Virus record (IMG/VR): IMGVR_UViG_2731957842_000007
Span: 1-18,628 of that record
DNA: 18,628 bases
Origin: a virus
Taxonomy: Duplodnaviria; Heunggongvirae; Uroviricota; Caudoviricetes
Strand: one strand, 5' to 3'
Shown: in pieces, positions 1,009 to 18,628 of the stretch
Layout: the number at the start of each line of letters is the position of its first letter
Numbering within the stretch: the stretch's first letter is position 1
Made by a program: the position numbers and the translations under genes
Notes under the pieces: model-generated
The model's input: the letters and a program-made list of their open reading frames with translations, nothing else
What the model was told of the DNA's origin: nothing
Databases searched by the model: none

Positions 1009-1083
1009 GTCCTCTTAGTTAAATGGATATAACGAGCCCCTCCTAAGGGCTAATTGCAGGTTCGATTCCTGCAGGGGACACCA
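1009..1083 (+). tRNA. argW: tRNA-Arg (anticodon CCU), 75 nt with encoded CCA end
   Basis: Cloverleaf readable in sequence: acceptor stem GTCCTCT/AGGGGAC, anticodon loop CTCCTAA (anticodon CCT), T-arm GCAGG-TTCGATT-CCTGC, 3' CCA. An integrase gene follows 160 bp downstream. Confidence 0.9.
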
Positions 1084-1221: not shown

Positions 1222-1245
1222 TTTTACCCACCGGATTTTTACCCA
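1222..1245 (+). repeat. Two direct copies of TTTTACCCA (1222-1230 and 1237-1245), 15 bp apart; the second overlaps the integrase ATG
   Basis: Exact 9 bp direct repeat read in sequence; position between the promoter-like element and the int start suggests recombinase or excisionase binding sites. Confidence 0.4.
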
Positions 1246-2402
1246 TGCTCACCGTTAAGCAGATTGAAGCAGCAAAGCCGAAAGAAAAACCATACCGCCT
1301 TCTCGATGGTAATGGCCTGTACCTTTATGTCCCTGTGTCAGGGAAAAAGGTATGGCAGCTTCGCTACAAGATTGACGGTAAGGAGAAAATCCTGACCGTC
1401 GGAAAATATCCGCTTATGACTTTGCAGGAGGCAAGGGATAAAGCATGGACCGCGAGGAAAGACATCTCGGTTGGCATCGATCCGGTAAAAGCGAAAAAGG
1501 CTTCGTCTAACAACAATTCCTTTAGCGCCATTTACAAGGAATGGTACGAGCACAAGAAGCAAGTCTGGTCAGTAGGCTATGCAACTGAACTTGCCAAAAT
1601 GTTTGATGACGACATTTTACCTATCATCGGCGGCCTTGAAATTCAGGATATTGAGCCTATGCAACTGCTGGAAGTAATCCGCAGGTTTGAAGATCGCGGT
1701 GCAATGGAGCGAGCCAACAAAGCACGCAGAAGATGCGGCGAGGTTTTCCGTTACGCTATTGTCACTGGTAGGGCTAAATATAACCCGGCACCTGACCTTG
1801 CTGACGCCATGAAAGGATACCGCAAGAAGAACTTCCCGTTTCTTCCTGCAGACCAGATCCCTGCATTCAACAAAGCACTGGCAACATTTTCAGGAAGCAT
1901 CGTATCGCTCATTGCGACTAAAGTTTTGCGCTACACAGCACTAAGAACGAAAGAGCTTCGCTCTATGCTATGGAAGAACGTCGATTTTGAAAACAGGATT
2001 ATCACTATCGACGCCAGTGTGATGAAGGGACGCAAAATTCATGTGGTTCCTATGTCAGACCAGGTGGTTGAACTTCTCACTACGCTAAACTCAATCACCA
2101 AACCAGTATCAGAGTTTGTTTTTGCCGGGCGCAACGATAAGAAGAAGCCAATTTGCGAGAACGCTGTACTGCTTGTGATCAAACAAATCGGCTATGAAGG
2201 TCTGGAAAGCGGTCACGGATTCAGGCATGAATTCAGCACGATTATGAACGAGCACGAATGGCCTGCTGATGCTATTGAAGTGCAACTGGCACATGCCAAC
2301 GGCGGATCTGTGCGCGGGATTTACAACCATGCTCAGTATCTCGATAAGCGCAGAGAAGTGATGCAGTGGTGGGCGGATTGGATTGATGAAAAGGTGGAGT
2401 GA
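1245..2402 (+). CDS. intS: Tyrosine site-specific integrase (phage integrase family), 385 aa
   Basis: Starts MLTVKQIEAAKPKEKPYRLLDGNGLYLYVP; C-terminal catalytic region contains R...HGFRHEF...Y motifs. The ORF-track GTG at 1209 is rejected in favour of the ATG at 1245, which gives the expected 385 aa length for the argW-associated integrase. Confidence 0.9.
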   Translation: MLTVKQIEAAKPKEKPYRLLDGNGLYLYVPVSGKKVWQLRYKIDGKEKILTVGKYPLMTLQEARDKAWTARKDISVGIDPVKAKKASSNNNSFSAIYKEWYEHKKQVWSVGYATELAKMFDDDILPIIGGLEIQDIEPMQLLEVIRRFEDRGAMERANKARRRCGEVFRYAIVTGRAKYNPAPDLADAMKGYRKKNFPFLPADQIPAFNKALATFSGSIVSLIATKVLRYTALRTKELRSMLWKNVDFENRIITIDASVMKGRKIHVVPMSDQVVELLTTLNSITKPVSEFVFAGRNDKKKPICENAVLLVIKQIGYEGLESGHGFRHEFSTIMNEHEWPADAIEVQLAHANGGSVRGIYNHAQYLDKRREVMQWWADWIDEKVE

Positions 2403-2417
2403 TCCACCTTTTCTGTT
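2393..2417. terminator. Bidirectional rho-independent terminator between the convergent int and tailspike genes
   Basis: Stem GGTGGA (2393-2398), loop GTGA, stem TCCACC (2403-2408), followed by TTTTCTGTT on the plus strand and preceded by AAAA (a T-run on the minus strand); overlaps the int stop codon. Confidence 0.5.
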
Positions 2418-4462: not shown

Positions 4463-4535
4463 ACCGAAATGGTACTATTGAGTATTTATCCAGTAGGTTA
4501 CGATGCCATTCCACCCAACTGGTGAGGCATCAAGG

Positions 4536-4802
4536 ATGTACAGCAAATACGACGAGGCGCAGTTTCACTTGAGACTTCCGCATGAACTCCACGCGAAAAT
4601 TAAACAGCGCGCGAAGATGAATAACAGGTCGCTGAACTCAGAGATAATTGCAGCGATTGAAGAATCATTGGCTAAACAAAGCTCTGCATCCGTTTACATT
4701 GACGATGCAGAGCGTATGGCAGAACAACAATCTGATATGGTTAAGAAAATGGTTTTTGAAACGCTTAAGACCATGTATAGCAATAATAAAAAGGAAACAT
4801 AG
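4536..4802 (+). CDS. mnt: Mnt-like ribbon-helix-helix (Arc/MetJ family) repressor, 88 aa
   Basis: FHLRLPHELHAKIKQRAKMNNRSLNSEIIAAIEESL is a ribbon-helix-helix N-terminal fold; C-terminal DAERMAEQQSDMVKKMVFETLK resembles the P22 Mnt C-terminus as I recall it. ATG at 4536 with GGTGAGG 8 nt upstream; ORF-track start 4503 rejected. Confidence 0.7.
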   Translation: MYSKYDEAQFHLRLPHELHAKIKQRAKMNNRSLNSEIIAAIEESLAKQSSASVYIDDAERMAEQQSDMVKKMVFETLKTMYSNNKKET

Positions 4803-4872
4803 AAATCTAGTTTCCGGCTAAAATGGCATTGCCTTCATGATATCCTGTGAAAAACTAAGGAGAGTTAACCAT

Positions 4873-5358
4873 ATGAAAAAATCACTGTTAATTATCCCGC
4901 TTCTGCTGGTTGGATGCGCAAAAGTAAGTGACTATCAAGCAAGTTGCGAACAACGCTATCAAAAGCTTAGCGATATGGCTAATTGCCTTGATGCCAGAGT
5001 GAAGAACGACTCACGCATGGCATCAGCACCAACACCTAAGCTATATGTCCTTGCTGCAAAGATGCTCGGGCAAGGTGTCGATGAAGGCAAGATAAGTGAC
5101 GCACAGGCAAGACTTGAGCTTCAGAATCTTTATGTTCAATTACAAAGCCAAGAACAAGCCCAACAAATAGCACAAAGCCAAGCATTCCAGCAGGCTTTAT
5201 TGAATTATCAGGCTGTAAACACAATGCAAGCGATCGAGCAAAAAGCGAGACAGCCTGTTATAACTCAACCCTATCCAACACGAGTTGACACTTACACAAA
5301 CTGCAATTCAGGATTTGGAAACACCGTCACATGCAACAGTAGCAGCAACATTAGATAA
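4873..5358 (+). CDS. Predicted lipoprotein with Gln-rich C-terminal region, 161 aa; candidate superinfection-exclusion or moron protein
   Basis: MKKSLLIIPLLLVGC has a signal peptide and lipobox (LVGC); strong RBS AAGGAG 10 nt upstream of ATG 4873; occupies the position where P22-like phages carry sieA/immI genes. Confidence 0.7.
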   Translation: MKKSLLIIPLLLVGCAKVSDYQASCEQRYQKLSDMANCLDARVKNDSRMASAPTPKLYVLAAKMLGQGVDEGKISDAQARLELQNLYVQLQSQEQAQQIAQSQAFQQALLNYQAVNTMQAIEQKARQPVITQPYPTRVDTYTNCNSGFGNTVTCNSSSNIR

Positions 5359-9913: not shown

Positions 9914-10758
9914 TGCTCCGCGATTATCTTGATGGTTGTGGCAGTAAACGCCGCACCATTCGACTGAATGGTTAACGTGCTGCCATTTGTGGCAAGAAAG
10001 CCGTCTTTATCCACGCTGAAGAACGTAGCTAACAAGATGTTATCGGTTGTTGTCGCCGAGTTGCGACTGCTTACCAGTGTGTCAGGAACAGAGCCGGAAA
10101 AGGTTAGCTGCATTGACCTGTTTGCGGTTCCGCTGGGCCACGTCCCGACAATCGACAGCTTGAAGAACAGGGTTTTGTTCTCGTTGAACACAACCATCTT
10201 GTTGTTAACGGTGTCGAAGAATGGTGCCAACGAGCCGGATGACGGCGTGAGCGTTTTCAGCAGGCTAACAAGGTTGGTCGGCGCTGTCGGGATGGTTACT
10301 GATACGCCAGAGTAAACAACCTCTGACTTCTTGCGTGTGGTTGCATACTCCAGAGCATCAATGCGCGTTTCATGGTCTGAAACCTGCGACTCCAGCGACT
10401 GAAGTCTGGTATCAAGCGACGCAATATCGCTTTCATTCTGAGTGATTCGTGTTTCATGTTCCTGAAGAGTTGATTCTGCCTGACTGATTCGCTCCTCATG
10501 ATTAACAAGCGTTGCTTCCGCAGCAGAAATTCGCTGCTCATGGTCAGCGAGAATCACATCCTGCTCATCGTTCCTGACTTGTGCGTCATAAGCGCCCTGT
10601 CCGGCCTCGTTGGCCTTGTTAGCCACGTTACCAACATCAGTGCCCTGTGCGATAACGTAAAGCAGATACGACTGCGAGAAGATATTGCGTGGAAGGACTG
10701 ATGTGTCGAGCCGTGTAGCCTGAATGATTACCGGCACATTGAGATTCGAATCCGCCAT
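9910..10758 (-). CDS. Tail needle protein, P22 gp26-like, with a divergent C-terminal knob domain, 282 aa
   Basis: N-terminus [43 protein letters not shown] matches the conserved gp26 N-terminal domain; central heptad-like repeats ([43 protein letters not shown]) fit the trimeric coiled-coil needle; C-terminal 120 aa differ from P22. Confidence 0.8.
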
Positions 10759-11552
10759 TACTCAATCCTTATCTGAGCGCCAGACAGAGTGACAGGTGAC
10801 TTCGTGATAACGCGCAATTTGAAACCAATGTTTTTCCTGATGCGCCCTACTTTCTTCCACAAAACGCGTTTGTCGTAAACGAACGGTTCATTCTGCTCAA
10901 TCATCTGCTCACGCCCGTAATTGATGCCGTCAGTGGTTGCAGAGAGGAACAGGCGGTCGGCGTACTGAGCTACGCCAGTGGATGATTCCACCTCCAGATC
11001 GAAGCATCTGGCGTTATCCGCTTTGAACAGTGGAGTAAACAGCAGGTGTTCCTGTTGCTTGTCGTACTGGCTGCTGATATCGAACTGCAATTTCCCGGTC
11101 ACGGACTCCAGCTTATCGCCGCACGTTATCTGATTGCCTTCATAAATGAAGTCGATAGCGCGGTACACATCGTCATACAGGCCTGTTTTCAACACACACC
11201 ATTGCGGACCATTGGCGCTTGAAGATGCGTCGTACACGAGGACGTGGCGCGGAAGGTGGATAATCAGCAGTTCATGCGCATCAAATCGCAGCGATTCCAT
11301 CACACCATCAGCCAGTTCATCAGCAGTGTAGGAGCGAAGAATTTTCTCAATGCTCGCGCTGGCGATTGGTGATACCTGACCTGATCCGATGATGTATACA
11401 GACGGCGCACCCGTTGCCGGATTGCTGATAAACGCATACGAATCAGCGAATGGCGTTTTGCAGTAAGTTCCGGCAATGCCTTTCTGCACCATCAGCGATG
11501 GTTGTGCGACATACAAAGCGGCACCATCGGAGGTCAACATGACAGTAGTCAT
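10758..11552 (-). pseudogene. 5'-truncated gp10-like tail accessory gene (C-terminal 264 codons only), at the deletion junction
   Basis: Occupies the gp10 position upstream of gp26; P22 gp10 is about 470 aa but this ORF is 264 aa. The codon immediately upstream of its ATG (11553-11555 on the minus strand) is TAA, and its first codons are antisense to the start of the N-like gene. Confidence 0.6.
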
Positions 11553-11838
11553 TACATATCTGGCTGACGATAACGCCAGAAATCGCCGCAGAGCACGCAG
11601 ACAGGCTCAACGTGAACAGGCAATGCAAGAGCAGCGACTGGCGCGAAAAATTGCGCTAAAGCTCTCTGGTTGCGTCAGAGCAGATAAAGCAGCATCACTC
11701 GGAAGCCTTCGCTGCAAGAAGGCAGAAGAAGTCGAGCGTAAACAGAATCGTATTTACTACCGCAAGCCACGCAGTGAAATGGGTGTGACTTGCTCAGGCC
11801 GCCAGAAAATGAAATTAGGCAGCAAACCACTTATTTGA
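11539..11838 (+). CDS. N-like transcription antiterminator with an arginine-rich motif, 99 aa
   Basis: MTVVITYLADDNARNRRRARRQAQREQ resembles the N-terminal arginine-rich RNA-binding motifs of lambda N and P22 gp24 (which begins MTVITY). GGAGG 5 nt upstream of ATG 11539; first gene of the rightward operon. ORF-track start 11476 rejected. Confidence 0.55.
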   Translation: MTVVITYLADDNARNRRRARRQAQREQAMQEQRLARKIALKLSGCVRADKAASLGSLRCKKAEEVERKQNRIYYRKPRSEMGVTCSGRQKMKLGSKPLI

Positions 11839-11846
11839 GGTGAGAT

Positions 11847-12317
11847 ATGACAAAATCATGGAGCGTACCTTTTCCTGAATCAGAAACTGAACATGATGGA
11901 ATGCCTGTTTTCTGGAGATTCCAGGCGACAGTTGAAGAAGATGGGATAAAAATATTCGCACTTCAATATATAGCTTTTCATCAGACAGAGCATTATGCAT
12001 GGTTGGTTCCTGCGCATTGGATTGTTAATTTTAAACCAGCACCAAATCAGTGGTTACAGGAATGGAAACAAAGGAGAAATAGATATGCAATTAAGAAAGT
12101 AGCAAAAAATGCAGAAAGATCTTTTGCATTCCCAACGAAGAAACTTGCCATTGAGAGTTTATTGCGCCGGAAGAAATACCATTTAATGAGAATCAAACAA
12201 GATTTGGCTGTTGTATCAACTCTTGTTGATGGGATGAAGAATATTGATACATCAACACCAGATATTGAATATAACTTTGGACACAACCAAGAAACAGAAA
12301 ATTGGGTATTCTACTAG
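11847..12317 (+). CDS. Hypothetical protein, 156 aa, in a visibly A+T-rich segment; moron candidate
   Basis: RBS GAGGTGAG before ATG 11847; Trp- and Lys-rich soluble protein with no family I recognise; followed immediately by a terminator. Confidence 0.6.
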   Translation: MTKSWSVPFPESETEHDGMPVFWRFQATVEEDGIKIFALQYIAFHQTEHYAWLVPAHWIVNFKPAPNQWLQEWKQRRNRYAIKKVAKNAERSFAFPTKKLAIESLLRRKKYHLMRIKQDLAVVSTLVDGMKNIDTSTPDIEYNFGHNQETENWVFY

Positions 12318-12341
12318 GCCGCATAGTCGGCCTTTATTTTT
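12317..12341 (+). terminator. Rho-independent terminator after the 156 aa ORF
   Basis: Stem GGCCG (12317-12321), loop CATAGT, stem CGGCC (12328-12332), followed by TTTATTTTT. Confidence 0.6.
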
Positions 12342-12363
12342 GGCATAAACAACAGAGGCTAAC

Positions 12364-12660
12364 ATGGAATTTAAAGGTACTGAAGGTAAGTGGGAAATAA
12401 TGATGGATGGCGATGAGATTAAAATCATCCAGGCAGACTCACTTGAAAATGGCGCAGGCTGGCGTTCGTATATTGCAATCTGTGAGGAAGTTCAATGTAT
12501 TGAAGATGCCAATCTAATAGCGGCAGCACCTGACCTTCTCGAAGCACTTCAGTTATTACTTAAGCAATCCAAAAATAGAACAACGACAACATATCCAGAA
12601 TGGTATGGAGCTGTTAATAAAGGTCTTGCAGCAATCAGCAAGGCTCTGGGAGGTGAATGA
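12364..12660 (+). CDS. Hypothetical protein, 98 aa
   Basis: ORF with an AGAGG RBS-like element upstream; its stop overlaps the start of the next ORF (ATGA), indicating translational coupling. Confidence 0.5.
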   Translation: MEFKGTEGKWEIMMDGDEIKIIQADSLENGAGWRSYIAICEEVQCIEDANLIAAAPDLLEALQLLLKQSKNRTTTTYPEWYGAVNKGLAAISKALGGE

Positions 12661-12869
12661 TGTGCGAGTTTTATGAAGCAGATATCAAACGCCCAGAAAT
12701 GGCAAGTGATGCGACATTACGTGATTACTTCGCTGCTAAGGCTATGGCAGCAATAGTGCGCAGATGGGACGGACATTCCTTTGGCGGTGGACAGAATTCA
12801 CCACAGTACAAAGAATTAGCAGATGATGCCTACTTTATTGCTGATGCCATGCTCAAAGCTCGCGAATAA
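12657..12869 (+). CDS. Hypothetical protein, 70 aa, translationally coupled to the upstream 98 aa ORF
   Basis: ATGA start/stop overlap at 12657-12660; no recognisable family. Confidence 0.45.
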   Translation: MMCEFYEADIKRPEMASDATLRDYFAAKAMAAIVRRWDGHSFGGGQNSPQYKELADDAYFIADAMLKARE

Positions 12870-12964
12870 GCACTGTGTATTCATTCCAACGAGTGAATAC
12901 ACGGAGCAATGTCGCTCGTAACTAAACAGGAGCCGACTTGTTCTGATTATTGGAAATCTTCTTT

Positions 12965-12992
12965 GCCCTCCAGTGTGAGGGCAATTTTTTTT
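12965..12992 (+). terminator. Rho-independent terminator upstream of the coiled-coil gene
   Basis: Stem GCCCTC (12965-12970), loop CAGTGT, stem GAGGGC (12977-12982), followed by AATTTTTTTTT. Confidence 0.55.
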
Positions 12993-13004
12993 GATGGAGG
13001 ATAT

Positions 13005-13973
13005 ATGAGTGAAGTAACAGATTTAGTTGTTATTGAAAAAGCAAATGCAATGACTGTATTTCAGTCTGCCGACCAGATTGAAGAAATCCTTCAAAAGGTA
13101 GAACGTGAAGTTATGTCCTTTGTGCCTGATATCACAACGGCAAAGGGCAGAAAGGAGGTCGCTTCTCTGGCGTATAAAGTTGCGCAGACGAAAACATATC
13201 TCGATGGTCTTGGCAAAGACCTTGTTGCTGAACTGAAGGAAATTCCAAAGCTAATTGATGCCAACCGCAAGACAGTGCGCGATCGCCTTGATGAACTGAA
13301 AGCCAAGGCACGCCAGCCTCTTACTGATTATGAAGAGGAACAGGCGCGGATTAAAGCTGAAGAAGAAGCTAAGGCAGCAGCTGAAGCTCTCGCAAAGCAA
13401 ATTGAGTCTGACCATGAAATAGCGATTTTGATGGATCGCGAATTTGACCGCCAAAGAGAAGAGGCAAGACTCAAAGCGGAGCAGGAAAAGCGAGAGCATG
13501 AAGAACGCTTAAAAAGAGAAGCTGAAGAGAAAGCCAGAGCTGAAGCCGAAGCAAAGGCAAAAGCCGAAATTGAAGCAGCAGCAAGGCGAGAAGCAGAAGC
13601 TAAGGCCGCAGCGGAACGTGCAGAGCGTGAACGCATTGAAGCCGAGCAACGAGCACAGCGCGAAGCAAAAGAGGCAGCAGAACGAGCTGAAAGAGAAAAG
13701 CAGGCAGCAATTGAAGCAGAACGCAGAAAAGCACAGGAGGAGGCTGAACGAATCCGTCGCGAGGTTGAAGCAAAAGAGCAAGCCAGAATAGCAGAAGAAA
13801 AAAGAATCAAGGAAGAAGAAGAGCGTAGAGCAAAGGATAAAGCTCACCGGAAAGAAGTAAATAACAAAATACTTGCTGACCTTATCAAGGTTGGTGCATC
13901 AGAAGATGTTGCTAAAAATATCATAACAGCCATCGTAAAAGGCGAAGTATTCGCAACAAAAATAACCTACTAA
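13005..13973 (+). CDS. Hypothetical coiled-coil protein with a long Glu/Ala/Lys/Arg-rich repetitive central region, 322 aa
   Basis: ATG 13005 preceded by GGAGG; the ORF-track start 12909 lies upstream of the terminator and is rejected. Central 200 aa are AEAKA/EAERR-type repeats; globular N- and C-terminal segments. Confidence 0.6.
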   Translation: MSEVTDLVVIEKANAMTVFQSADQIEEILQKVEREVMSFVPDITTAKGRKEVASLAYKVAQTKTYLDGLGKDLVAELKEIPKLIDANRKTVRDRLDELKAKARQPLTDYEEEQARIKAEEEAKAAAEALAKQIESDHEIAILMDREFDRQREEARLKAEQEKREHEERLKREAEEKARAEAEAKAKAEIEAAARREAEAKAAAERAERERIEAEQRAQREAKEAAERAEREKQAAIEAERRKAQEEAERIRREVEAKEQARIAEEKRIKEEEERRAKDKAHRKEVNNKILADLIKVGASEDVAKNIITAIVKGEVFATKITY

Positions 13974-13997
13974 TAAAACCAACATAAGGAACCACCC

Positions 13998-14129
13998 ATG
14001 ATTTACGCAATCGCGGGAGGAGCTCGCATGGGTGCCTTCCAACTAAATGAATCTTTACTTGAACGAATCACCCGTAAATTACGTGACGGATGGAAAAGAG
14101 TTGAGGTCTTATTATGCGCAATGAAATAG
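13998..14129 (+). CDS. cIII-like small protein (FtsH protease inhibitor family), 43 aa
   Basis: MIYAIAGG...ESLLERITRKLRDGWKR matches the conserved core of lambda CIII as I recall it; AAGGA RBS upstream; located upstream of erf as in lambdoid PL operons. Confidence 0.5.
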   Translation: MIYAIAGGARMGAFQLNESLLERITRKLRDGWKRVEVLLCAMK

Positions 14130-14266
14130 CCATCAATCACCAGATGCTTCGTGCTGCACAGAACAAAGCAGTAATAGCCAGATTTATTGGTGATTCAAAA
14201 ATGTGGCTTGAAGCAAATAAAGCGATGAAATCAGCTATCAACCTTCCGTGGTATCGCAGGAAATGA
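14114..14266 (+). CDS. Kil-like small protein (putative), 50 aa
   Basis: IARFIGDSKMWLEANKAMK resembles the lambda Kil family from memory; start overlaps the cIII-like ORF, and its stop overlaps the next start. Confidence 0.35.
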   Translation: MRNEIAINHQMLRAAQNKAVIARFIGDSKMWLEANKAMKSAINLPWYRRK

Positions 14267-14421
14267 GTTTCACAGATAACTGGTCAGACGAAGAATTCAT
14301 TCGTCAGATGAAAGAATTAATCGGTAACGAAGGAGATATTCATGTCACTTGCAACCACAGTGAAGGAGAGCAAGTTACAGAGACGCATGTACACGCAGAA
14401 AGCTCTCTGGTATCGCCATAA
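14263..14421 (+). CDS. Hypothetical small protein, 52 aa
   Basis: Chained by ATGA overlap to the upstream small ORF and lying directly upstream of erf; no family recognised. Confidence 0.3.
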   Translation: MSFTDNWSDEEFIRQMKELIGNEGDIHVTCNHSEGEQVTETHVHAESSLVSP

Positions 14422-14522
14422 TGGTGACCGCGAAGGAATGCGGGTATGCCTTAATTTGTCCCGAGTCGAAGTATTAAATCAGCGTTATTTCCTTGGGCCG
14501 TGTCCATTCTGAGAACAATCAT

Positions 14523-15128
14523 ATGAGCAAAGAATTTTACGCAAGACTGGCAGCTATTCAGGAGAATCTGAACGCGCCAAAGAATCAGTACAACTCATTC
14601 GGCAAATATAAATACAGAAGCTGCGAAGATATTCTTGAAGGCGTTAAGCCGTTACTGAATGGTCTGTTTTTATCAATCAGCGATGAAGTTGTGTTGATTG
14701 GTGATCGGTATTACGTGAAAGCCACGGCAACTATTACCGATGGCGAAAACAGTCATACGGCAACTGCTCTTGCACGAGAGGAAGAAAGCAAGAAAGGAAT
14801 GGATTCTGCACAAGTTACTGGAGCTACAAGCTCTTATGCGCGCAAGTATTGCCTCAATGGTTTGTTCGGCATTGATGATGCGAAAGATGCAGATACCGAC
14901 GAACATAAACATCAGCAGAACGCAGCAGCAAAGCAATCAAAACCATCACCTACACCTGAACAGGTTCTAAAAGCATTCACTGACGCAGCAATGCAAAAAA
15001 ACACCGTGGAAGAGCTTAAACAGGCGTTCGCCAAAGCGTGGAAGATGCTCGAAGGAACACCGGAGCAGCACAAAGCGCAGGACGTTTACAACATCAGACG
15101 AGACGAATTAGAAGGAGCTGCTGCTTAA
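14523..15128 (+). CDS. erf: Erf-family single-strand annealing recombinase, 201 aa
   Basis: MSKEFYARLAAIQENLNAPKNQYNSFGKYKYRSCEDILEGVKPLLNGLFLSISDEVVLIGDRYYVKATATITDGENSHTA matches P22 Erf as I recall it. ORF-track TTG start at 14493 rejected in favour of ATG 14523. Confidence 0.85.
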   Translation: MSKEFYARLAAIQENLNAPKNQYNSFGKYKYRSCEDILEGVKPLLNGLFLSISDEVVLIGDRYYVKATATITDGENSHTATALAREEESKKGMDSAQVTGATSSYARKYCLNGLFGIDDAKDADTDEHKHQQNAAAKQSKPSPTPEQVLKAFTDAAMQKNTVEELKQAFAKAWKMLEGTPEQHKAQDVYNIRRDELEGAAA

Positions 15129-15511
15129 TGGCACATTCGATTACTGTAAGACTAAACAAGCCCGCAAGAGAGTTTCAGGCCGGGGAAAATATCGGATTCA
15201 ACATCCGTGCTGGCGTTCAGTATTACGATCGCCAGACAAAAAAGAAAGAATGGACAAACTACAGCGCCGTTGTATTTGCCAAGCCGGGAGCGCAAGCGGA
15301 TTACTACCGTAGTGTTCTTGTTGAAGGTGGCATTGTGGAAATTACCGGAGAAAACATCAGGGTTGATGTTTATCAGGGGCAAAATGGTCAATCAATCACT
15401 CTTGAATTACTGAATGCAAAGATTGGATTTGCAACTTCAGGAAACAGCCAACAGCAGCAAAGTAGCAATCATCAAAATCATCCTGAATACGACGATTCAA
15501 TCCCCTTCTAG
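15128..15511 (+). CDS. SSB-like single-stranded DNA-binding protein with an acidic C-terminal ...DDSIPF tail, 127 aa
   Basis: ATG overlaps the erf stop (TAATG); the C-terminus EYDDSIPF matches the conserved SSB tail motif (DDDIPF); the N-terminal region is compatible with an OB fold. ORF-track start 15038 rejected. Confidence 0.6.
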   Translation: MAHSITVRLNKPAREFQAGENIGFNIRAGVQYYDRQTKKKEWTNYSAVVFAKPGAQADYYRSVLVEGGIVEITGENIRVDVYQGQNGQSITLELLNAKIGFATSGNSQQQQSSNHQNHPEYDDSIPF

Positions 15512-15534
15512 ATTAGCAAAATAAGGATTCCATT

Positions 15535-15828
15535 ATGCCAGCGCCTCTGTATGGTGCGGATGACCCGCGCCGCTGTTCCGGCAATTCCGTATCGGAGGTG
15601 CTGGATAAATTCAGGAAAAACTACGACCTGATAATGTCTCTACCGCAGGAAACGAAAGAGGAAAAGGAATTTCGCCATTGTATATGGCTTGCAGAGAAAG
15701 AAGAACGCGAGCGAATTTACCAGACATCAATCCGCCCATTCCGCAAAGCCACATATACCCACTTCCCTGAAATTGACCCGCGCCTGCGTAATTACCGCTC
15801 ACGCTATGGCGCTATCAGTAATGACTGA
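15535..15828 (+). CDS. Hypothetical protein, 97 aa
   Basis: ORF with an AAGGA RBS-like element upstream of ATG 15535; no family recognised. Confidence 0.45.
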
Positions 15829-15838
15829 GGAATTTACC

Positions 15839-16003
15839 ATGAGAGGACTTGCATACAATCCCGGCATTCTTCCGGCAGAAATGATTATTCGCCAACGCGT
15901 AAAGCCAATGCCATCGAGAGAGGAATTGCTTAAGAGAAATTCTTTTCCATCAGTGAATCAAAACAAATATCTGAATGCGATGTTGCGGAGTGGGAAGAAA
16001 TGA
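15839..16003 (+). CDS. Hypothetical small protein, 54 aa (alternative start at 15821)
   Basis: GAGG 8 nt upstream of ATG 15839; its stop overlaps the next start (ATGA at 16000-16003). The 5' part of the ORF-track ORF 15689..16003 overlaps the upstream gene and is rejected. Confidence 0.3.
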
Positions 16004-16476
16004 AACAAATGTCACTAATTGAGATGGATGGATTCCTGAAAGGTAAATGCATCCCCCGAGATTTAAAGGTTAACGAAACAAACGCTGAATATCTGGTGCG
16101 TAAATTTGCTGAAGCGGAGGCCAAGTGCGCGGAGATGGCAGCGGAAAATGCGGGGCTGAAGTCTGGCGCTATGGACGAAATCAAGGTTATCAACCGTGGA
16201 GGGCAGGCATATTGCGTAAAAGATGGAGTGCAAGTTAATCCCATATATGCAAGAGGGTGGAATGATTATCGCGCAAAGTCTATGCAATCAGACACCCCAG
16301 CCACCGATGCTTTCCTGGCTGAAGTCAGGGCTAAGGCGTTTGATGACCTTTGCGCGGCGTTCGTTAAGCACGCGTCGGTGTCCGGGCTGGACGATGGCGA
16401 CTGCGTTACGGTGAAAGAGGCGACTGACGCCCTGCTGCATTGTGCGGAACAGCTTCACAAGGGAGTGCATTCATGA
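16000..16476 (+). CDS. Hypothetical protein, 158 aa
   Basis: Translationally coupled on both sides (ATGA overlaps at 16000 and 16473); no family recognised. Confidence 0.5.
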
Positions 16477-16706
16477 GCAACCTACTACCATGTCCATTCT
16501 GTGGCGGTGCAGCGCACGTTGCCAGCGAAGCAGATCACCCTGAATATGGCTCTGGCGGTCGATTCTATTTCGTTCGATGCGGTACGTGTCGCGCTCAATC
16601 TGGTAGCAAATATGCAGCGCCTGGAAATGACTGCGCGATTTTTTATTCAGAGGTTAGAGCAGAGTGGAATCAACGAGCAAAGGAGGCGAACAGTGAGCAA
16701 GATTGA
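16473..16706 (+). CDS. Lar-family restriction alleviation-like protein, 77 aa
   Basis: [12 protein letters not shown]...CGTC contains the CPFCG-type Cys motif characteristic of Lar-family small proteins; ATG overlaps the upstream stop. ORF-track start 16440 rejected. Confidence 0.5.
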   Translation: MSNLLPCPFCGGAAHVASEADHPEYGSGGRFYFVRCGTCRAQSGSKYAAPGNDCAIFYSEVRAEWNQRAKEANSEQD

Positions 16707-17268
16707 CTATCAGGCACTGCGTGAGGCGGCGCAGAACGCGAAAGATTTAGGTGGGATTAAGAATTACAAGCGAGGCGAGCAAGCTGTTGCCGAATTTGAG
16801 TCCCTGATAACGCCACACATTGTGCTGGCACTGCTGGATGAACGGGAAAGAAACCAGCAATACATCAAACGCCGCGACCAGGAGAACGAGGATATTGCGC
16901 TAACGGTGGGGAAACTGCGTGTTGAGCTGGAAGCCGCAGAGAAGCGCAACGCAAAATTACAAAGCGAGAATGCATACATCCGCAACCGGTACAAAGAACT
17001 GGACCTGTTAATCGGGAAAAACATTCTGGTCATGCAGGCTGCGATTATCGAATGGCAGGCAACTGGCGACGCTAAGAGCGGACTGGCATGGATTTATAAC
17101 ACACTGTTTGGCCCTGGCGAATTGCCGGACGAATCTGAGAAAGATGCTCAGGCCTACTTTAATCGCAAATATGCACCGATTGACGAAAAGCTTATGGAGC
17201 TTCACAAGTGGTTTTGGGAACAAAGTGAAGCCGAGCGCGCCGCCGGCATTCGCATCAAAGGAGAGTGA
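16693..17268 (+). CDS. Hypothetical coiled-coil protein (possibly Ead/Ea22-like), 191 aa, GTG start
   Basis: AGGAGG 6 nt upstream of GTG 16693; the ORF-track start at 16501 would overlap the Lar-like gene for 200 bp and is rejected. Confidence 0.5.
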   Translation: MSKIDYQALREAAQNAKDLGGIKNYKRGEQAVAEFESLITPHIVLALLDERERNQQYIKRRDQENEDIALTVGKLRVELEAAEKRNAKLQSENAYIRNRYKELDLLIGKNILVMQAAIIEWQATGDAKSGLAWIYNTLFGPGELPDESEKDAQAYFNRKYAPIDEKLMELHKWFWEQSEAERAAGIRIKGE

Positions 17269-17269
17269 T

Positions 17270-17920
17270 ATGAGCACTATCACTAAAGAACGTATCGAAT
17301 TGTTCATTAAATCCCCGCTTGAAAACGGACTTACTCGTGGCGAACAAATGGAACTGGCACGAATTGCACTGGCATCACTGGAACGCGAACTGATTCGCCA
17401 CGAGCATGCCAAATGGTCTGACTCCACATTTGGCTGCGTTGGCCCTATTGGTCCGCTGAAACATCTCTCAAAAGAGGCACTGGAAGCCGCAGCCGAACCA
17501 GACGATCTTAGCGAGTGGGCTGATATGCAGTTTCTGTTGTGGGATGCACAGCGCCGTGCTGGCATCAGCGATGCTGAAATTACCGCTGCTATGGAAGATA
17601 AATTGAAGATCAACATGGAGCGCCAGTGGCCTGAGCCAAAAGATGGTGAGCCTCGCTTGCACATTAAAGAACCCGGCAACTATCCGGTAACTCCGGATGG
17701 TTGGATAAGCTGTAGTGAGCGAATGCCTGAAAAGAATCGGAACGTGCTTATTTCGGTGAATTTCGATAGCTCTCTGGTTGAACCGCTAATATGCTCCGCA
17801 CGCTATACCGGAAGCACCTTTCGGCGCGGAGATGCAACGATTAAGCCGGGTAATGGTATTGAGCAAGCAACTCACTGGATGCCGCTACCGGAACCGCCGC
17901 AGGAGGTAAACCGTGGCTAA
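17270..17920 (+). CDS. DUF551-like phage protein, 216 aa
   Basis: AAAGGAGAG RBS, ATG 2 nt after the upstream stop; C-terminus ...PDGWISCSERMPE...THWMPLPEPP resembles the DUF551 signature. ORF-track start 17108 rejected. Confidence 0.55.
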   Translation: MSTITKERIELFIKSPLENGLTRGEQMELARIALASLERELIRHEHAKWSDSTFGCVGPIGPLKHLSKEALEAAAEPDDLSEWADMQFLLWDAQRRAGISDAEITAAMEDKLKINMERQWPEPKDGEPRLHIKEPGNYPVTPDGWISCSERMPEKNRNVLISVNFDSSLVEPLICSARYTGSTFRRGDATIKPGNGIEQATHWMPLPEPPQEVNRG

Positions 17921-17982
17921 CCTGCAACTTGCCGTCAAAGGTGAATAACAATCCTCGCACTCGCGGGGATTTCTTTTATCTG

Positions 17983-18007
17983 AACTCGCTACGGCGAGTT
18001 TTGTTTT
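17983..18007 (+). terminator. Rho-independent terminator
   Basis: Stem AACTCGC (17983-17989), loop TACG, stem GCGAGTT (17994-18000), followed by TTGTTTT. Confidence 0.55.
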
Positions 18008-18019
18008 ATGGAGATGATT

Positions 18020-18319
18020 ATGGCCTGTTCAACATTCAACCCTCTAACGTTACAGAAATACCAGACAGACCCTGAAGATTTATGCTCACTGTGTGGCGGA
18101 AATCATGGCAAAGCCGCCATGATCGAATGTAAGGACAAAATCCACATATGCCTTAATTGCGTTGATGTCCTCGTTGATATCAAAAATGAAAGAGAAGATA
18201 AAAAGCGTAGCGAGGCTATTCGCGCCTTAGATTCATGGATGCGAGATGGGTATAGTGCTGCGCAAATTTATGACTTCGCAATATCAAAAGGCGAAATACC
18301 AGGAGTGCGCATCGAATAA
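18020..18319 (+). CDS. Hypothetical Cys-rich (CxxC...CxxC, putative zinc-binding) small protein, 99 aa
   Basis: GGAG 6 nt upstream of ATG 18020 (alternative in-frame ATGs at 18008 and 18014); motifs CSLCGG and CLNC. Confidence 0.45.
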   Translation: MACSTFNPLTLQKYQTDPEDLCSLCGGNHGKAAMIECKDKIHICLNCVDVLVDIKNEREDKKRSEAIRALDSWMRDGYSAAQIYDFAISKGEIPGVRIE

Positions 18320-18361
18320 GACGTAACCAATATTCGAATTGAAGAACTGAAAGAACACCAA

Positions 18362-18383
18362 GCCGCCTGATGGCGGTTTTTTA
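18362..18383 (+). terminator. Rho-independent terminator upstream of the excisionase gene
   Basis: Stem GCCGCC (18362-18367), loop TGAT, stem GGCGGT (18372-18377), followed by TTTTTTATT. Confidence 0.6.
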
Positions 18384-18392
18384 TTGCCTGAT

Positions 18393-18408
18393 TTGCAGGT
18401 TCGATTCC
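18393..18408 (+). repeat. 16 bp exact copy of the argW T-arm segment (TTGCAGGTTCGATTCC; identical to 1054-1069)
   Basis: Exact 16/16 direct repeat of tRNA positions 1054-1069; the flanks diverge and the T-stem cannot form, so it is a fragment, not a tRNA. Confidence 0.5.
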
Positions 18409-18427
18409 CTATTCGGAGATAGCACTC

Positions 18428-18628
18428 ATGCAACACGAACTACAGCCTGATTCACTGGTTGATTTGAAATTCATCATGGCCGATACTGGCTTCGGTAAAA
18501 CCTTCATCTATGACCGGATTAAGTCCGGCGACCTGCCAAAAGCCAAAGTTATCCACGGGCGAGCAAGATGGTTATATCGTGACCATTGTGAATTCAAAAA
18601 TAAGCTCTTAAGCCGCGCCAATGGGTAA
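18428..18628 (+). CDS. torI: Excisionase / TorI-like recombination directionality factor, 66 aa
   Basis: 66 aa ORF MQHELQPDSLVDLKFIMADTGFGKTFIYDRIKSGDLPKAKVIHGRARW..., recognised as the KplE1 TorI/Xis family; last gene of the rightward operon, at the prophage end opposite int. Confidence 0.75.
   Translation: MQHELQPDSLVDLKFIMADTGFGKTFIYDRIKSGDLPKAKVIHGRARWLYRDHCEFKNKLLSRANG

Follow-up and report, generated by a model that had tools for sequence, protein, structure and literature searches.

Intrinsic terminators of a probable lambdoid early-left operon in a defective KplE1-like prophage from which PL and nutL appear to have been deleted

Background

Are the hairpins that interrupt the gene array behind an N-like antiterminator gene in this prophage segment the terminators of a lambdoid early-left (PL) operon, and what would become of them when promoter and nut site are missing? 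The window that we analysed (the whole stretch of 18,628 nt, IMG/VR record IMGVR_UViG_2731957842_000007, Caudoviricetes) was described in an earlier note, made from the letters alone, as carrying four such terminators in the manner of the lambda tL arrangement; the note supposed that PL and nutL had been lost and that the control of excision might have changed as a consequence. In lambda, the PL operon starts with N, followed by the co-directional cIII, kil, recombination genes and xis with intrinsic terminators between them, and the window shows the same order. Lambda keeps PL and nutL, whereas the window is without both. Other differences are the recombination module (P22-type erf/abc2 in the window versus exo/bet/gam in lambda) and the extra cassettes between the terminators T1 and T2 of the window, which lambda does not have.

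Results

A defective prophage at argW

The window represents a defective prophage of the KplE1 type, integrated at argW, whose intS and torI genes are intact (Table 1). It combines an integrase gene next to the tRNA-Arg(CCU) gene with a TorI-type recombination directionality factor (RDF) at the other end; the window stops at the torI stop codon and attR would fall past its end. This placing of integrase and RDF at opposite prophage ends is the known architecture of the argW module (PMC2951348), is also found in HK620, and belongs to a phage group in which excision of KplE1 needs only TorI in trans and the transcription of int and the RDF gene is uncoupled (PMC2951348). With attP between the two genes, int does not follow xis in this group.

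KplE1 (CPS-53) of E. coli K-12 is likewise defective at argW, with intS by attL and torI by attR, and likewise lacks the immunity and early regulatory region. It is 98% identical to the window over yfdC-argW-intS (positions 1-2410) and over torI. The interiors differ: K-12 has yfdG-yfdT, whereas the window has P22-type tail and ejection genes and an early-left operon running from N to abc2, and neither N nor PreS, T1-T3 or the T4 hairpin, all present in the window, occurs in the K-12 element. The phages HK620, Sf6, CUS-3 and HF4s (Lederbergvirus) are complete, and relative to them some 20 kb are missing here from between N and gp10. The N allele of the window is that of HK620 (99.5% DNA identity over 206 nt) and HF4s (98.6% over 283 nt), and the region from T4 to torI is 99.7% identical to HK620, which also has the same tL2A element.

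Table 1. Position of the features of the window; fold energies are given in the text
Feature	Position	Strand	Remarks
tRNA-Arg(CCU) argW, attachment side (attL)	1009..1083	+	ARAGORN; Rfam tRNA 63.4 bits
intS-type integrase, intact, 385 aa	1245..2402	+	PHROG 1 E 2e-79; 98% DNA identity to K-12 CPS-53 intS
Gene 10, 3' part, P22/Sf6-type (head closure Hc3)	10758..11534	-	lacks ~213 N-terminal codons
Putative deletion junction	11525..11534		imperfect microhomology
N-type antiterminator, intact, 99 aa	11539..11838	+	arginine-rich motif NARNRRRARRQAQRE, residues ~12-25; own Shine-Dalgarno retained
phrog_1636 ORF	11847..12317	+	ends at T1; ORF map, PHROG
T1, predicted intrinsic terminator	12316..12341	+	6-bp stem 12316-12333 (AGGCCG/CGGCCT), tail TTATTTTT
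Two small ORFs (phrog_1273, phrog_2201)	12364..12869	+	between T1 and the PreS element
Orthologue of the lambda ral-ea10 spacer with LPR1/PreS sRNA	12870..12992	+	sRNA ~88 nt (~12905-12992); ends in T2 = lambda tL2a
T2, predicted terminator	stem 12963-12984, U-tract to 12992	+	arms TTGCCCTC/GAGGGCAA, then eight T
TolA-like coiled-coil protein, 322 aa	13005..13973	+	phrog_1376; 'TolA' or 'antitoxin' in relatives
cIII and kil homologues	13998..14266	+	phrog_550, phrog_2055
erf recombinase	14523..15128	+	Pfam ERF E 2e-44
abc2 anti-RecBCD	15535..15828	+	Pfam PF11043 E 6e-65
T3a, predicted intrinsic terminator	17950..17979, stem 17950-17971	+	9-bp stem, tail TCTTTTAT
T3b, predicted intrinsic terminator	17982..18009, stem 17982-18001	+	8-bp stem, tail TGTTTTAT
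phrog_3680 ORF	18020..18319	+	zinc-ribbon-like CxxC motifs; cassette bracketed by T3a/b and T4
T4, predicted intrinsic terminator	18360..18387, stem 18360-18379	+	directly 5' of torI; tail TTTATTGC
Putative cII-activated 'phage integration' promoter	18383..18421	+	HK620 annotation only; TTGC-N5-TTGC at 18384-18396; carried over from HK620 features 1664-1702 and 1689-1701 (stretch 99.7% identical)
torI-type excisionase, intact, 66 aa	18428..18628	+	98.4% DNA identity to K-12 torI

A deletion joins gp10 to N

The gene that precedes N on the opposite strand is a truncated gene 10, of which residues 8-264 correspond to positions 214-470 of the 486 in PHROG 578. The homology to gp10 of HK620 and Sf6 ends at 11526-11534, and the matches to N-bearing phages begin at 11523-11525, 14 nt before the ATG of N, so that the two abut. 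In a three-way alignment the window reads ATCGGAGGTC at the junction, the gp10 side AACGGTGGTT and the N-upstream side ATCGGAGGTC. These observations support a deletion of about 20 kb, with one end near codon 214 of gp10 and the other 14 nt ahead of the N ATG, by which PL, nutL, cI, cro and cII would have been lost together with the genes for replication, lysis and the head; the loss of PL and nutL that the earlier note had supposed is thus borne out. That so much is missing from the prophage, some 20 kb with cII and the genes for replication, lysis and the head, which leaves it grossly defective, had gone unremarked there. We did not find the junction in the relatives, in 5,426 complete E. 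coli genomes, in the GTDB representative genomes or in IMG/VR, and an exact-protein look-up with the truncated gp10 ORF gave no match. All early-left ORFs from N to torI are still intact, which points either to a recent deletion or to something that keeps them so.

N without its nut site

By its sequence, the operon opens with a genuine homologue of N (PHROG 271, 'anti-termination protein N-like', E 6.8e-37; 19.7 bits with Pfam N_peptide, below the cutoff of 27.9), 100% identical to the N of locus L007. Both this N-like first gene and its arginine-rich motif, as noted earlier, are real. The predicted terminators all lie downstream of this gene and point the same way.

In 74 of 76 relatives that share the N allele, a boxA (GCTCTTTAAC) was found 148-602 nt upstream of N, and in every boxA-bearing segment inspected a boxB (CCCGCCGAAATGCGGG) came next. 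On neither strand of the whole window did the cognate boxB have a match with up to 3 mismatches; boxA, with up to 2 mismatches, had 19 matches on both strands versus 18 expected, which is chance level, and no exact boxA-like match with inspected downstream sequence was followed by a boxB-like hairpin. A nut site, for which the earlier note had pointed to 11400..12400, is missing there as well as from the rest of the window, and the terminators have neither nut site nor PL upstream on the same transcript, both being deleted.

Sigma-70-like sites with at least 8 of 12 consensus positions were absent from the 840 nt upstream of N, from the junction, and from the surroundings of T1, T3 and T4, where only about 10-40 nt separate terminator and start codon. 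A 9/12 site is present at 12788-12816, upstream of PreS. In total the window has 8 promoter-like sites versus 26 in shuffled sequences, fewer than expected. Consensus scans such as these may miss promoters that are weak, need an activator or use a sigma factor other than sigma-70, and transcripts of the late genes that read into the operon from the antisense side are a further possible source of RNA.

Five hairpins on the sense strand

Using a strict definition (six or more pairs, four or more of them G-C, loops of 3-8 nt, and five or more T among 8 nt) we identified five terminators on the sense strand of the operon (11539-18628), starting at 12316, 12963, 17950, 17982 and 18360, and none on the antisense strand. 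In 300 dinucleotide-preserving shuffles of the operon the mean was 0.25 (sd 0.5, maximum 3). All five combine a G+C-rich hairpin with a U-tract and are intergenic on the ORF map, as expected for terminators of a lambdoid PL operon; T3a and T3b form a tandem pair. The ORF map likewise upholds the co-directional gene array. The four terminators reported before (12317-12341, 12965-12992, 17983-18007 and 18362-18383) are all present, with coordinates right to within 1-2 nt; T3a (17950-17971), the fifth, had been overlooked.

The folding energies support T3a (-16.8 kcal/mol, z -5.8), T3b (-11.9 kcal/mol, z -4.2), T2 (-13.2 kcal/mol, z -3.2) and T4 (-13.0 kcal/mol, z -2.7). T1 is the weakest of the five (-10.6 kcal/mol, z -1.5), with 15 of 200 shuffles folding equally well, and no fold was found for its lambda counterpart; T1 may thus terminate poorly. 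Searching Rfam with the whole window at gathering thresholds and with 11400-18628 by E-value yielded only argW and sub-threshold noise (e.g. STnc130, 25 bits versus a cutoff of 55, and Leu_leader, 21 versus 50), so that no curated family covers the hairpins.

The hairpin elements are 92-99% conserved in lambda, HK620, HF4s and dozens of viral contigs. The T1 hairpin was found in 40 related loci (up to 4 substitutions allowed) and T3a in 80. The only compensatory pair among the hairpins is a C-G to T-A change in T3b, in 2 loci; variation in T2 is biased to the loop, and the other variants are in loops, are wobble-compatible or break terminal stem pairs, in sequences too alike for a covariation test.

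Relation to lambda and HK620 terminators

At the sequence level the comparison with the lambda tL arrangement holds. T2 corresponds to tL2a of lambda and to the hairpin labelled tL2A in the RefSeq record of HK620. T3a/T3b (17945-18018) correspond to lambda 29361-29288 and T4 (18319-18390) to lambda 29169-29098, both with 97% identity and both just upstream of xis; T3b and T4 are the same sequences as the lambda terminators t4 and t5 that were predicted by ARNold in 2014 (PMC4195576). The 3' half and tail of T1 correspond to lambda 34087-34055, directly past the ral stop codon. The HK620 record (NC_002730) annotates PL, nutL, N, tL1, tL2A-D and tL3 in the homologous operon; for tL2B-D and tL3 we identified no convincing hairpin counterparts in the window, including the surroundings of 15935-15947. 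HF4s has all the elements of the window in the same order on a single genome, namely N, a T1-like hairpin, PreS/T2, T3a/b, T4 and xis, and in addition carries nutL ahead of N.

T2 as the end of the PreS/LPR1 element

T2 does not stand alone. In lambda, tL2a is an experimentally described termination site of the early-left operon and forms the 3' end of LPR1/PreS, an Hfq-dependent sRNA of the ral-ea10 spacer that is made from this operon in the lytic cycle (10.1101/2024.10.31.621285). Positions 12870-13004 correspond to lambda 34045-33911 with 95.6% identity over 135 nt, flanks included, and T2 with the 93 nt upstream shows zero differences across about 113 nt (~12870-12983). The element at 12870-12992 falls within the conservation limits used for LPR1 in that paper (at least 92% identity and at most 3 gaps). 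Terminator hairpin and poly-U, operon and orientation are shared with lambda; only the base of the terminator and the U-tract differ slightly (GGGCAATTTTTTTT here versus GGGCGATTTTTTAT in lambda). The flanks are different: two small ORFs upstream and the TolA-like gene downstream here versus ral and ea10 in lambda, the small ORFs being absent from both lambda and HF4s, with about 10 nt separating T1 from PreS there.

The element folds at -46.1 kcal/mol (z -5.3). In the centroid structure of 12905-12992 an unpaired stretch precedes a terminal hairpin with 8 U, in line with the G+C-rich 3' hairpin, poly-U tail and unpaired seed region of PreS. It is present in 79-81 of 86 loci, whatever the flanking genes. 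Expression of PreS from this prophage, as a discrete Hfq-bound RNA of ~88/68 nt, is doubtful, because in lambda it is driven by PL, which has been lost here. The Pas sRNAs of EPEC prophages were considered as the identity of 12870-12992 and rejected, as these adjoin lysis, Q and structural genes and not the early-left operon. That T2 coincides with the 3' end of a characterised sRNA had been overlooked before.

Discussion

The hairpins are, very probably, genuine rho-independent terminators, inherited with the early-left (PL) operon from a lambdoid phage of the P22/HK620 kind. Following the lambda paradigm, RNA polymerase starting at PL in an intact phage would transcribe nutL (boxA and boxB), the arginine-rich motif of N would bind boxB and, together with the Nus factors of the host, would make the polymerase resistant to termination. 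It would then pass T1, T2 (tL2a), T3a/T3b and T4 and reach erf and the excisionase gene; in the intact relatives, the hairpins would thus terminate transcription and N would suppress them. T2 would have a second role, documented in lambda, in which it supplies the Hfq-dependent LPR1/PreS with its 3' hairpin and poly-U. In the window the deletion of PL, nutL and the repressor and cII genes, along with the replication, lysis and head genes, would have orphaned N, leaving it without cognate nut RNA or a recognisable promoter. As PL and nutL are deleted, N-dependent override could not operate and the five terminators would act as unconditional barriers. Since nut site and PL are gone, the hairpins would be members of a PL operon by descent, in a regulatory circuit that is broken here. 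The expected outcome is a silent early-left operon, PreS, erf and torI included, and a KplE1-like element that would remain fixed at argW unless TorI were supplied in another way.

For this account as a whole, i.e. inherited terminators, N/nut-dependent read-through and a circuit broken by deletion, we estimate a probability of roughly 85%. It is built on what our analysis shows: hairpins that are biased to the sense strand and orthologous to those of lambda and HK620, an N gene identified as such, a deletion junction and no nut site; the present silence of the operon would follow by analogy with lambda. Altered control of excision, as proposed in the earlier note, is plausible, and the expression of erf and torI might be affected by the same analogy.

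Chance inverted repeats in AT-rich spacers have next to no probability as an explanation. T1 taken by itself would fit, given its z of -1.5, but the five sites against an expected 0.25 ± 0.5, none of them antisense and all of them intergenic, and their conservation in phages and viral contigs argue against it; the orthology to lambda and the shuffle statistics refute this explanation. A more serious, though doubtful, possibility is that the hairpins act mainly as modules for RNA 3' ends and sRNAs and not as polarity checkpoints, T2 making and stabilising PreS and the others shielding processed mRNA segments from 3' exonucleases. The match of T2 and its upstream 93 nt to lambda, free of differences over about 113 nt, the retention of the element among varying neighbours and the fold far better than that of shuffles all agree with such a role, as does the finding that LPR1 of lambda is bound by Hfq and regulates dnaN and alaS (10.1101/2024.10.31.621285). 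This role complements that of a checkpoint, however, since the same work equates the 3' end of LPR1 with the early-left terminator tL2a; moreover, no sRNA is known for T1, T3a/b and T4, which also have no Rfam match, and PreS has no documented promoter here now that PL is deleted.

The hairpin spacers could also have been kept chiefly as linkers, that is, as boundary sequences for the exchange of cassettes between lambdoid phages, with termination incidental. Homology between the mosaic phages indeed begins or stops exactly at the hairpin elements: HK620, HF4s and lambda all have the start of PreS immediately behind the stop codon at 12870, the similarity of different phages breaks off as soon as the U-tract of T4 has ended, between common T3 and T4 flanks phrog_3680 is found here and orf55 in lambda, and the CUS-3 record annotates 'boundary sequences'. 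We nevertheless consider it unlikely, as it leaves the strand bias of five versus zero, the U-tracts and the loop-biased variation of T2 unexplained, and tL2a is a termination site by experiment (10.1101/2024.10.31.621285).

It is quite improbable, too, that cryptic or internal promoters still drive what is left of the operon, with the terminators dividing it into units and torI and excision remaining inducible. The intact ORFs from N to torI and the 9/12 site upstream of PreS would be in line with this, HK620 has an annotated promoter directly upstream of its torI homologue, and Menouni et al. (PNAS, 2013) reportedly found that inhibition of Rho induces torI transcription and KplE1 excision. 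Yet the annotated HK620 promoter depends on cII, which is deleted here, promoter-like sites were found neither at the junction nor in the short gaps that separate T1, T3b and T4 from the start codons behind them, and such sites are scarcer in the window than in shuffled sequences. A domesticated operon, in which PreS and possibly N and erf would be transcribed from a cryptic promoter (e.g. that at 12788-12816), the remnant would constitutively tune dnaN and alaS via Hfq, and T3a/T3b/T4 would silence torI and so fix the remnant, is highly speculative and very unlikely.

Earlier descriptions of lambda and HK620 already cover the terminators, the logic of N and nut and the PreS sRNA; this is ordinary, known biology, and our findings have little import beyond correct annotation; T2, for instance, is better annotated as the PreS/tL2a element than as an anonymous terminator. 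The locus does present a clean natural case in which one microhomology-mediated deletion appears to have severed a lambdoid early-left operon from PL and nutL. Its five constitutive terminators, with a stack of three directly ahead of torI, would offer a simple explanation for the remnant staying put.

Terminator hairpins in the early-left operon

The earlier note had reported four hairpin-plus-T-tract sites within the rightward early-left operon, and this observation was confirmed: all four were recovered by a consensus scan, at most 1-2 nt off the reported coordinates, together with a fifth terminator, T3a, immediately 5' of T3b. Strict criteria (a stem of 6 or more pairs with 4 or more G-C pairs, a loop of 3-8 nt and a tract with 5 or more T in 8 nt) left 5 sites on the sense strand of the operon, exactly T1, T2, T3a, T3b and T4 and all intergenic, and 0 on the antisense strand; 300 dinucleotide-preserving shuffles yielded a mean of 0.25 +/- 0.5 sites (maximum 3). 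Chance inverted repeats as the origin of the hairpins were ruled out by these shuffle counts and by orthology to lambda. T1 is the weakest of the five. The hairpin sequences are near-identical among relatives and thus give little covariation signal, with one compensatory change (C-G to T-A, in T3b) and other variants mostly in loops or terminal pairs.

Features of the window, with predicted folding of the terminators and of the PreS element
Feature	Position	Strand	Fold (kcal/mol)	z	Remark
yfdC-like ORF					left end of window
tRNA-Arg(CCU), argW	1009-1083				left end of window
intS-type integrase	1245-2402				left end of window
11-bp perfect hairpin	2388-2413				between convergent integrase and tailspike genes
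P22/Sf6-type late genes (tailspike, gp16, gp20, gp7, gp14, tail needle gp26, gp10)	right of intS	minus
Arc/Mnt-like ORF (99 aa), phrog_6067 ORF (173 aa)	4503-5358	plus			between tailspike and gp16
Tightly packed array (N-type antiterminator, cIII, kil, erf, abc2, torI-type excisionase)	11539 to window end	plus			early-left operon
T1	12316	plus	-10.6	-1.5
Two small ORFs (phrog_1273, phrog_2201)	12364-12869				exactly between T1 and PreS element
Sigma-70-like site	12788-12816				TGGACA-17 nt-AAGAAT, 9/12
PreS element (123 nt)	12870-12992		-46.1	-5.3	ends in T2
T2	12963	plus	-13.2	-3.2
T3a	17950-17971	plus	-16.8	-5.8
T3b	17982	plus	-11.9	-4.2
phrog_3680 ORF	18020-18319				CxxC...CxxC motifs, between T3a/b and T4
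T4	18360	plus	-13.0	-2.7

Relation to phage lambda and the PreS element

A BLAST comparison of the operon with phage lambda was decisive for the identity of the elements. T3a/T3b (17945-18018) correspond to lambda 29361-29288 (97%), between ea8.5 and orf55, and T4 (18319-18390) to lambda 29169-29098 (97%), just 5' of xis; the lambda counterparts fold as terminators as well, and the T3b and T4 sequences are the predicted terminators t4 and t5 of the lambda exo-xis region (PMC4195576). For T1, the match to lambda (34087-34055) covers the 3' half and the tail and lies directly after the ral stop codon, where the hairpin fold is no longer formed in the lambda version; the full hairpin has matches in 40 related loci at no more than 4 substitutions. 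At the sequence level, the lambda tL arrangement proposed earlier thus holds for T2, T3a/b and T4 and in part for T1.

The region 12870-13004 matches lambda 34045-33911 (95.6%), the ral-ea10 spacer, with zero differences from 12870 to about 12983 (about 113 nt). To this spacer a 2024 preprint mapped the Hfq-dependent sRNA LPR1/PreS, an RNA of ~88 nt processed to ~68 nt that is derived from the early-left operon during the lytic cycle, activates dnaN and represses alaS, and whose 3' hairpin and poly-U form the termination site tL2a (10.1101/2024.10.31.621285). The same hairpin as T2 is labelled 'tL2A' in the HK620 RefSeq record. The highly structured, non-coding PreS element is kept with hardly any change in 79-81 of 86 collected loci, irrespective of the flanking genes, and has no feature in current genome annotations (RefSeq, Rfam). 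Initiation at the sigma-70-like site, which lies within a 70-aa ORF ~55 nt 5' of the element, might in theory produce an RNA of ~170 nt that does not need PL and stops at T2.

The N gene and the nut site

The first ORF of the operon (99 aa) belongs to PHROG 271 ('anti-termination protein N-like', E 6.8e-37), is 100% identical to the N protein of an IMG/VR contig and carries the motif NARNRRRARRQAQRE; a Pfam N_peptide match was below cutoff. Its C-terminus resembles that of lambda N. Of the 76 relatives that share this N allele, 74 have boxA (GCTCTTTAAC) 148-602 nt 5' of N, and in every boxA-bearing upstream segment inspected a boxB hairpin (CCCGCCGAAATGCGGG) follows after 14 nt. A single genome, HF4s, contains in order nutL, N, a T1-like hairpin, PreS/T2, T3a/b, T4 and xis, which places all five terminators downstream of nutL in an intact phage. 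With up to 3 mismatches allowed, the window contained no boxB-like sequence, and decamers resembling boxA occurred at chance frequency only.

Prophage type and deletion junction

The gene layout is shared with HK620, Sf6, CUS-3 and KplE1-type prophages at argW, in which attL carries int and attR the excisionase (HK620 record; PMC2951348); the window stops with its last gene, that of the torI-type excisionase. The yfdC-argW-intS stretch is 98% identical to that of E. coli K-12. The hairpin next to the integrase gene looks like a bidirectional terminator; K-12 CPS-53 (the cryptic prophage KplE1) and HF4s carry gtrABC/yfdGHI O-antigen modification genes at this position, which are absent from the window. 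The ORF pair between tailspike and gp16 looks like a remnant of the immI-type region of a P22-like phage.

Similarity to N-bearing phages starts 14 nt 5' of the N start codon, at 11525, and similarity to HK620/Sf6 gp10 stops, from the opposite side, at 11526-11534; in a three-way alignment the joint shows an imperfect microhomology of 10 nt. The orientation fits a simple deletion inside one prophage, which on the HK620 map (7659 to 27158) amounts to ~19.5 kb. Gone with it are nutL, PL, cI, cro and cII, the genes for replication and lysis together with nin and Q, those for terminase, portal, scaffold, coat and gp4, and the 5' 40% of the head closure gene gp10 (its first ~213 codons). A search for sigma-70-like sites scoring at least 8/12 found none in the 840 nt before N and none in the gaps that separate each terminator from the next start codon. 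The junction had no match in 5,426 complete E. coli genomes, GTDB representatives and IMG/VR. The joint (11525-11552) also creates an artefactual 264-aa minus-strand ORF, with its ATG at 11552 within the N coding region and reading into the truncated gp10 frame, which gene callers may list as a real gene in head-to-head overlap with N.

Probable function of the terminators and control of excision

Intact relatives most likely use the textbook N/nutL circuit established in lambda. In these relatives the terminators would make the distal early-left genes dependent on N, with PreS as an extra output of T2; the circuit has been summarised for xis and int (PMC2951348). The hairpins can also be read as parts of an sRNA module, which is true for T2 and complements the checkpoint role, or as borders for cassette exchange. 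The latter has real support, as homology blocks start and stop at the hairpin spacers and cassettes differ in the T1-PreS and T3-T4 intervals. In lambda and HF4s a gap of only ~10 nt separates T1 from PreS, and the two small ORFs that lie between them in the window are thus an apparent cassette insertion at a terminator/sRNA boundary, and the T3a/b-T4 slot holds orf55 in lambda but the phrog_3680 ORF here. In other phages different genes follow once the T4 U-tract ends. In a comparison of L003 (E. coli K-12) 11180-11310 with window 18319-18428, KplE1 has torI and the preceding 50 nt in common with the window but lacks the T4 hairpin, the homology starting at the T-tract (window 18378). A role as exchange borders nevertheless leaves the strand bias and the U-tracts unexplained. 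The interpretation given in the earlier note is essentially right.

In the remnant, with PL, nutL and cII gone, N would be unable to act and the terminators would be unconditional, and the early-left operon, PreS and torI included, is probably silent. The HK620 record annotates, by analogy, a cII-activated promoter right after T4 (equivalent to 18383-18421); the cII that it needs is gone from the window. Within 18383-18428, transcription from this promoter (TTGC-N5-TTGC) would start at or after the torI Shine-Dalgarno; if so, such transcripts might, speculatively, allow expression of int, which lies downstream in the phage form, while yielding little TorI. Rho-dependent silencing is said to hold torI off in KplE1, as reportedly described by Menouni et al. 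in 2013. For KplE1 excision, TorI in trans is sufficient (PMC2951348). Altered excision control, as suggested before, is a reasonable proposal. The elements and the circuit have all been described already for lambda and HK620; nothing is new at this locus except the deletion, a unique one, which has left N, PreS and the terminators as orphans in a defective KplE1-like prophage.
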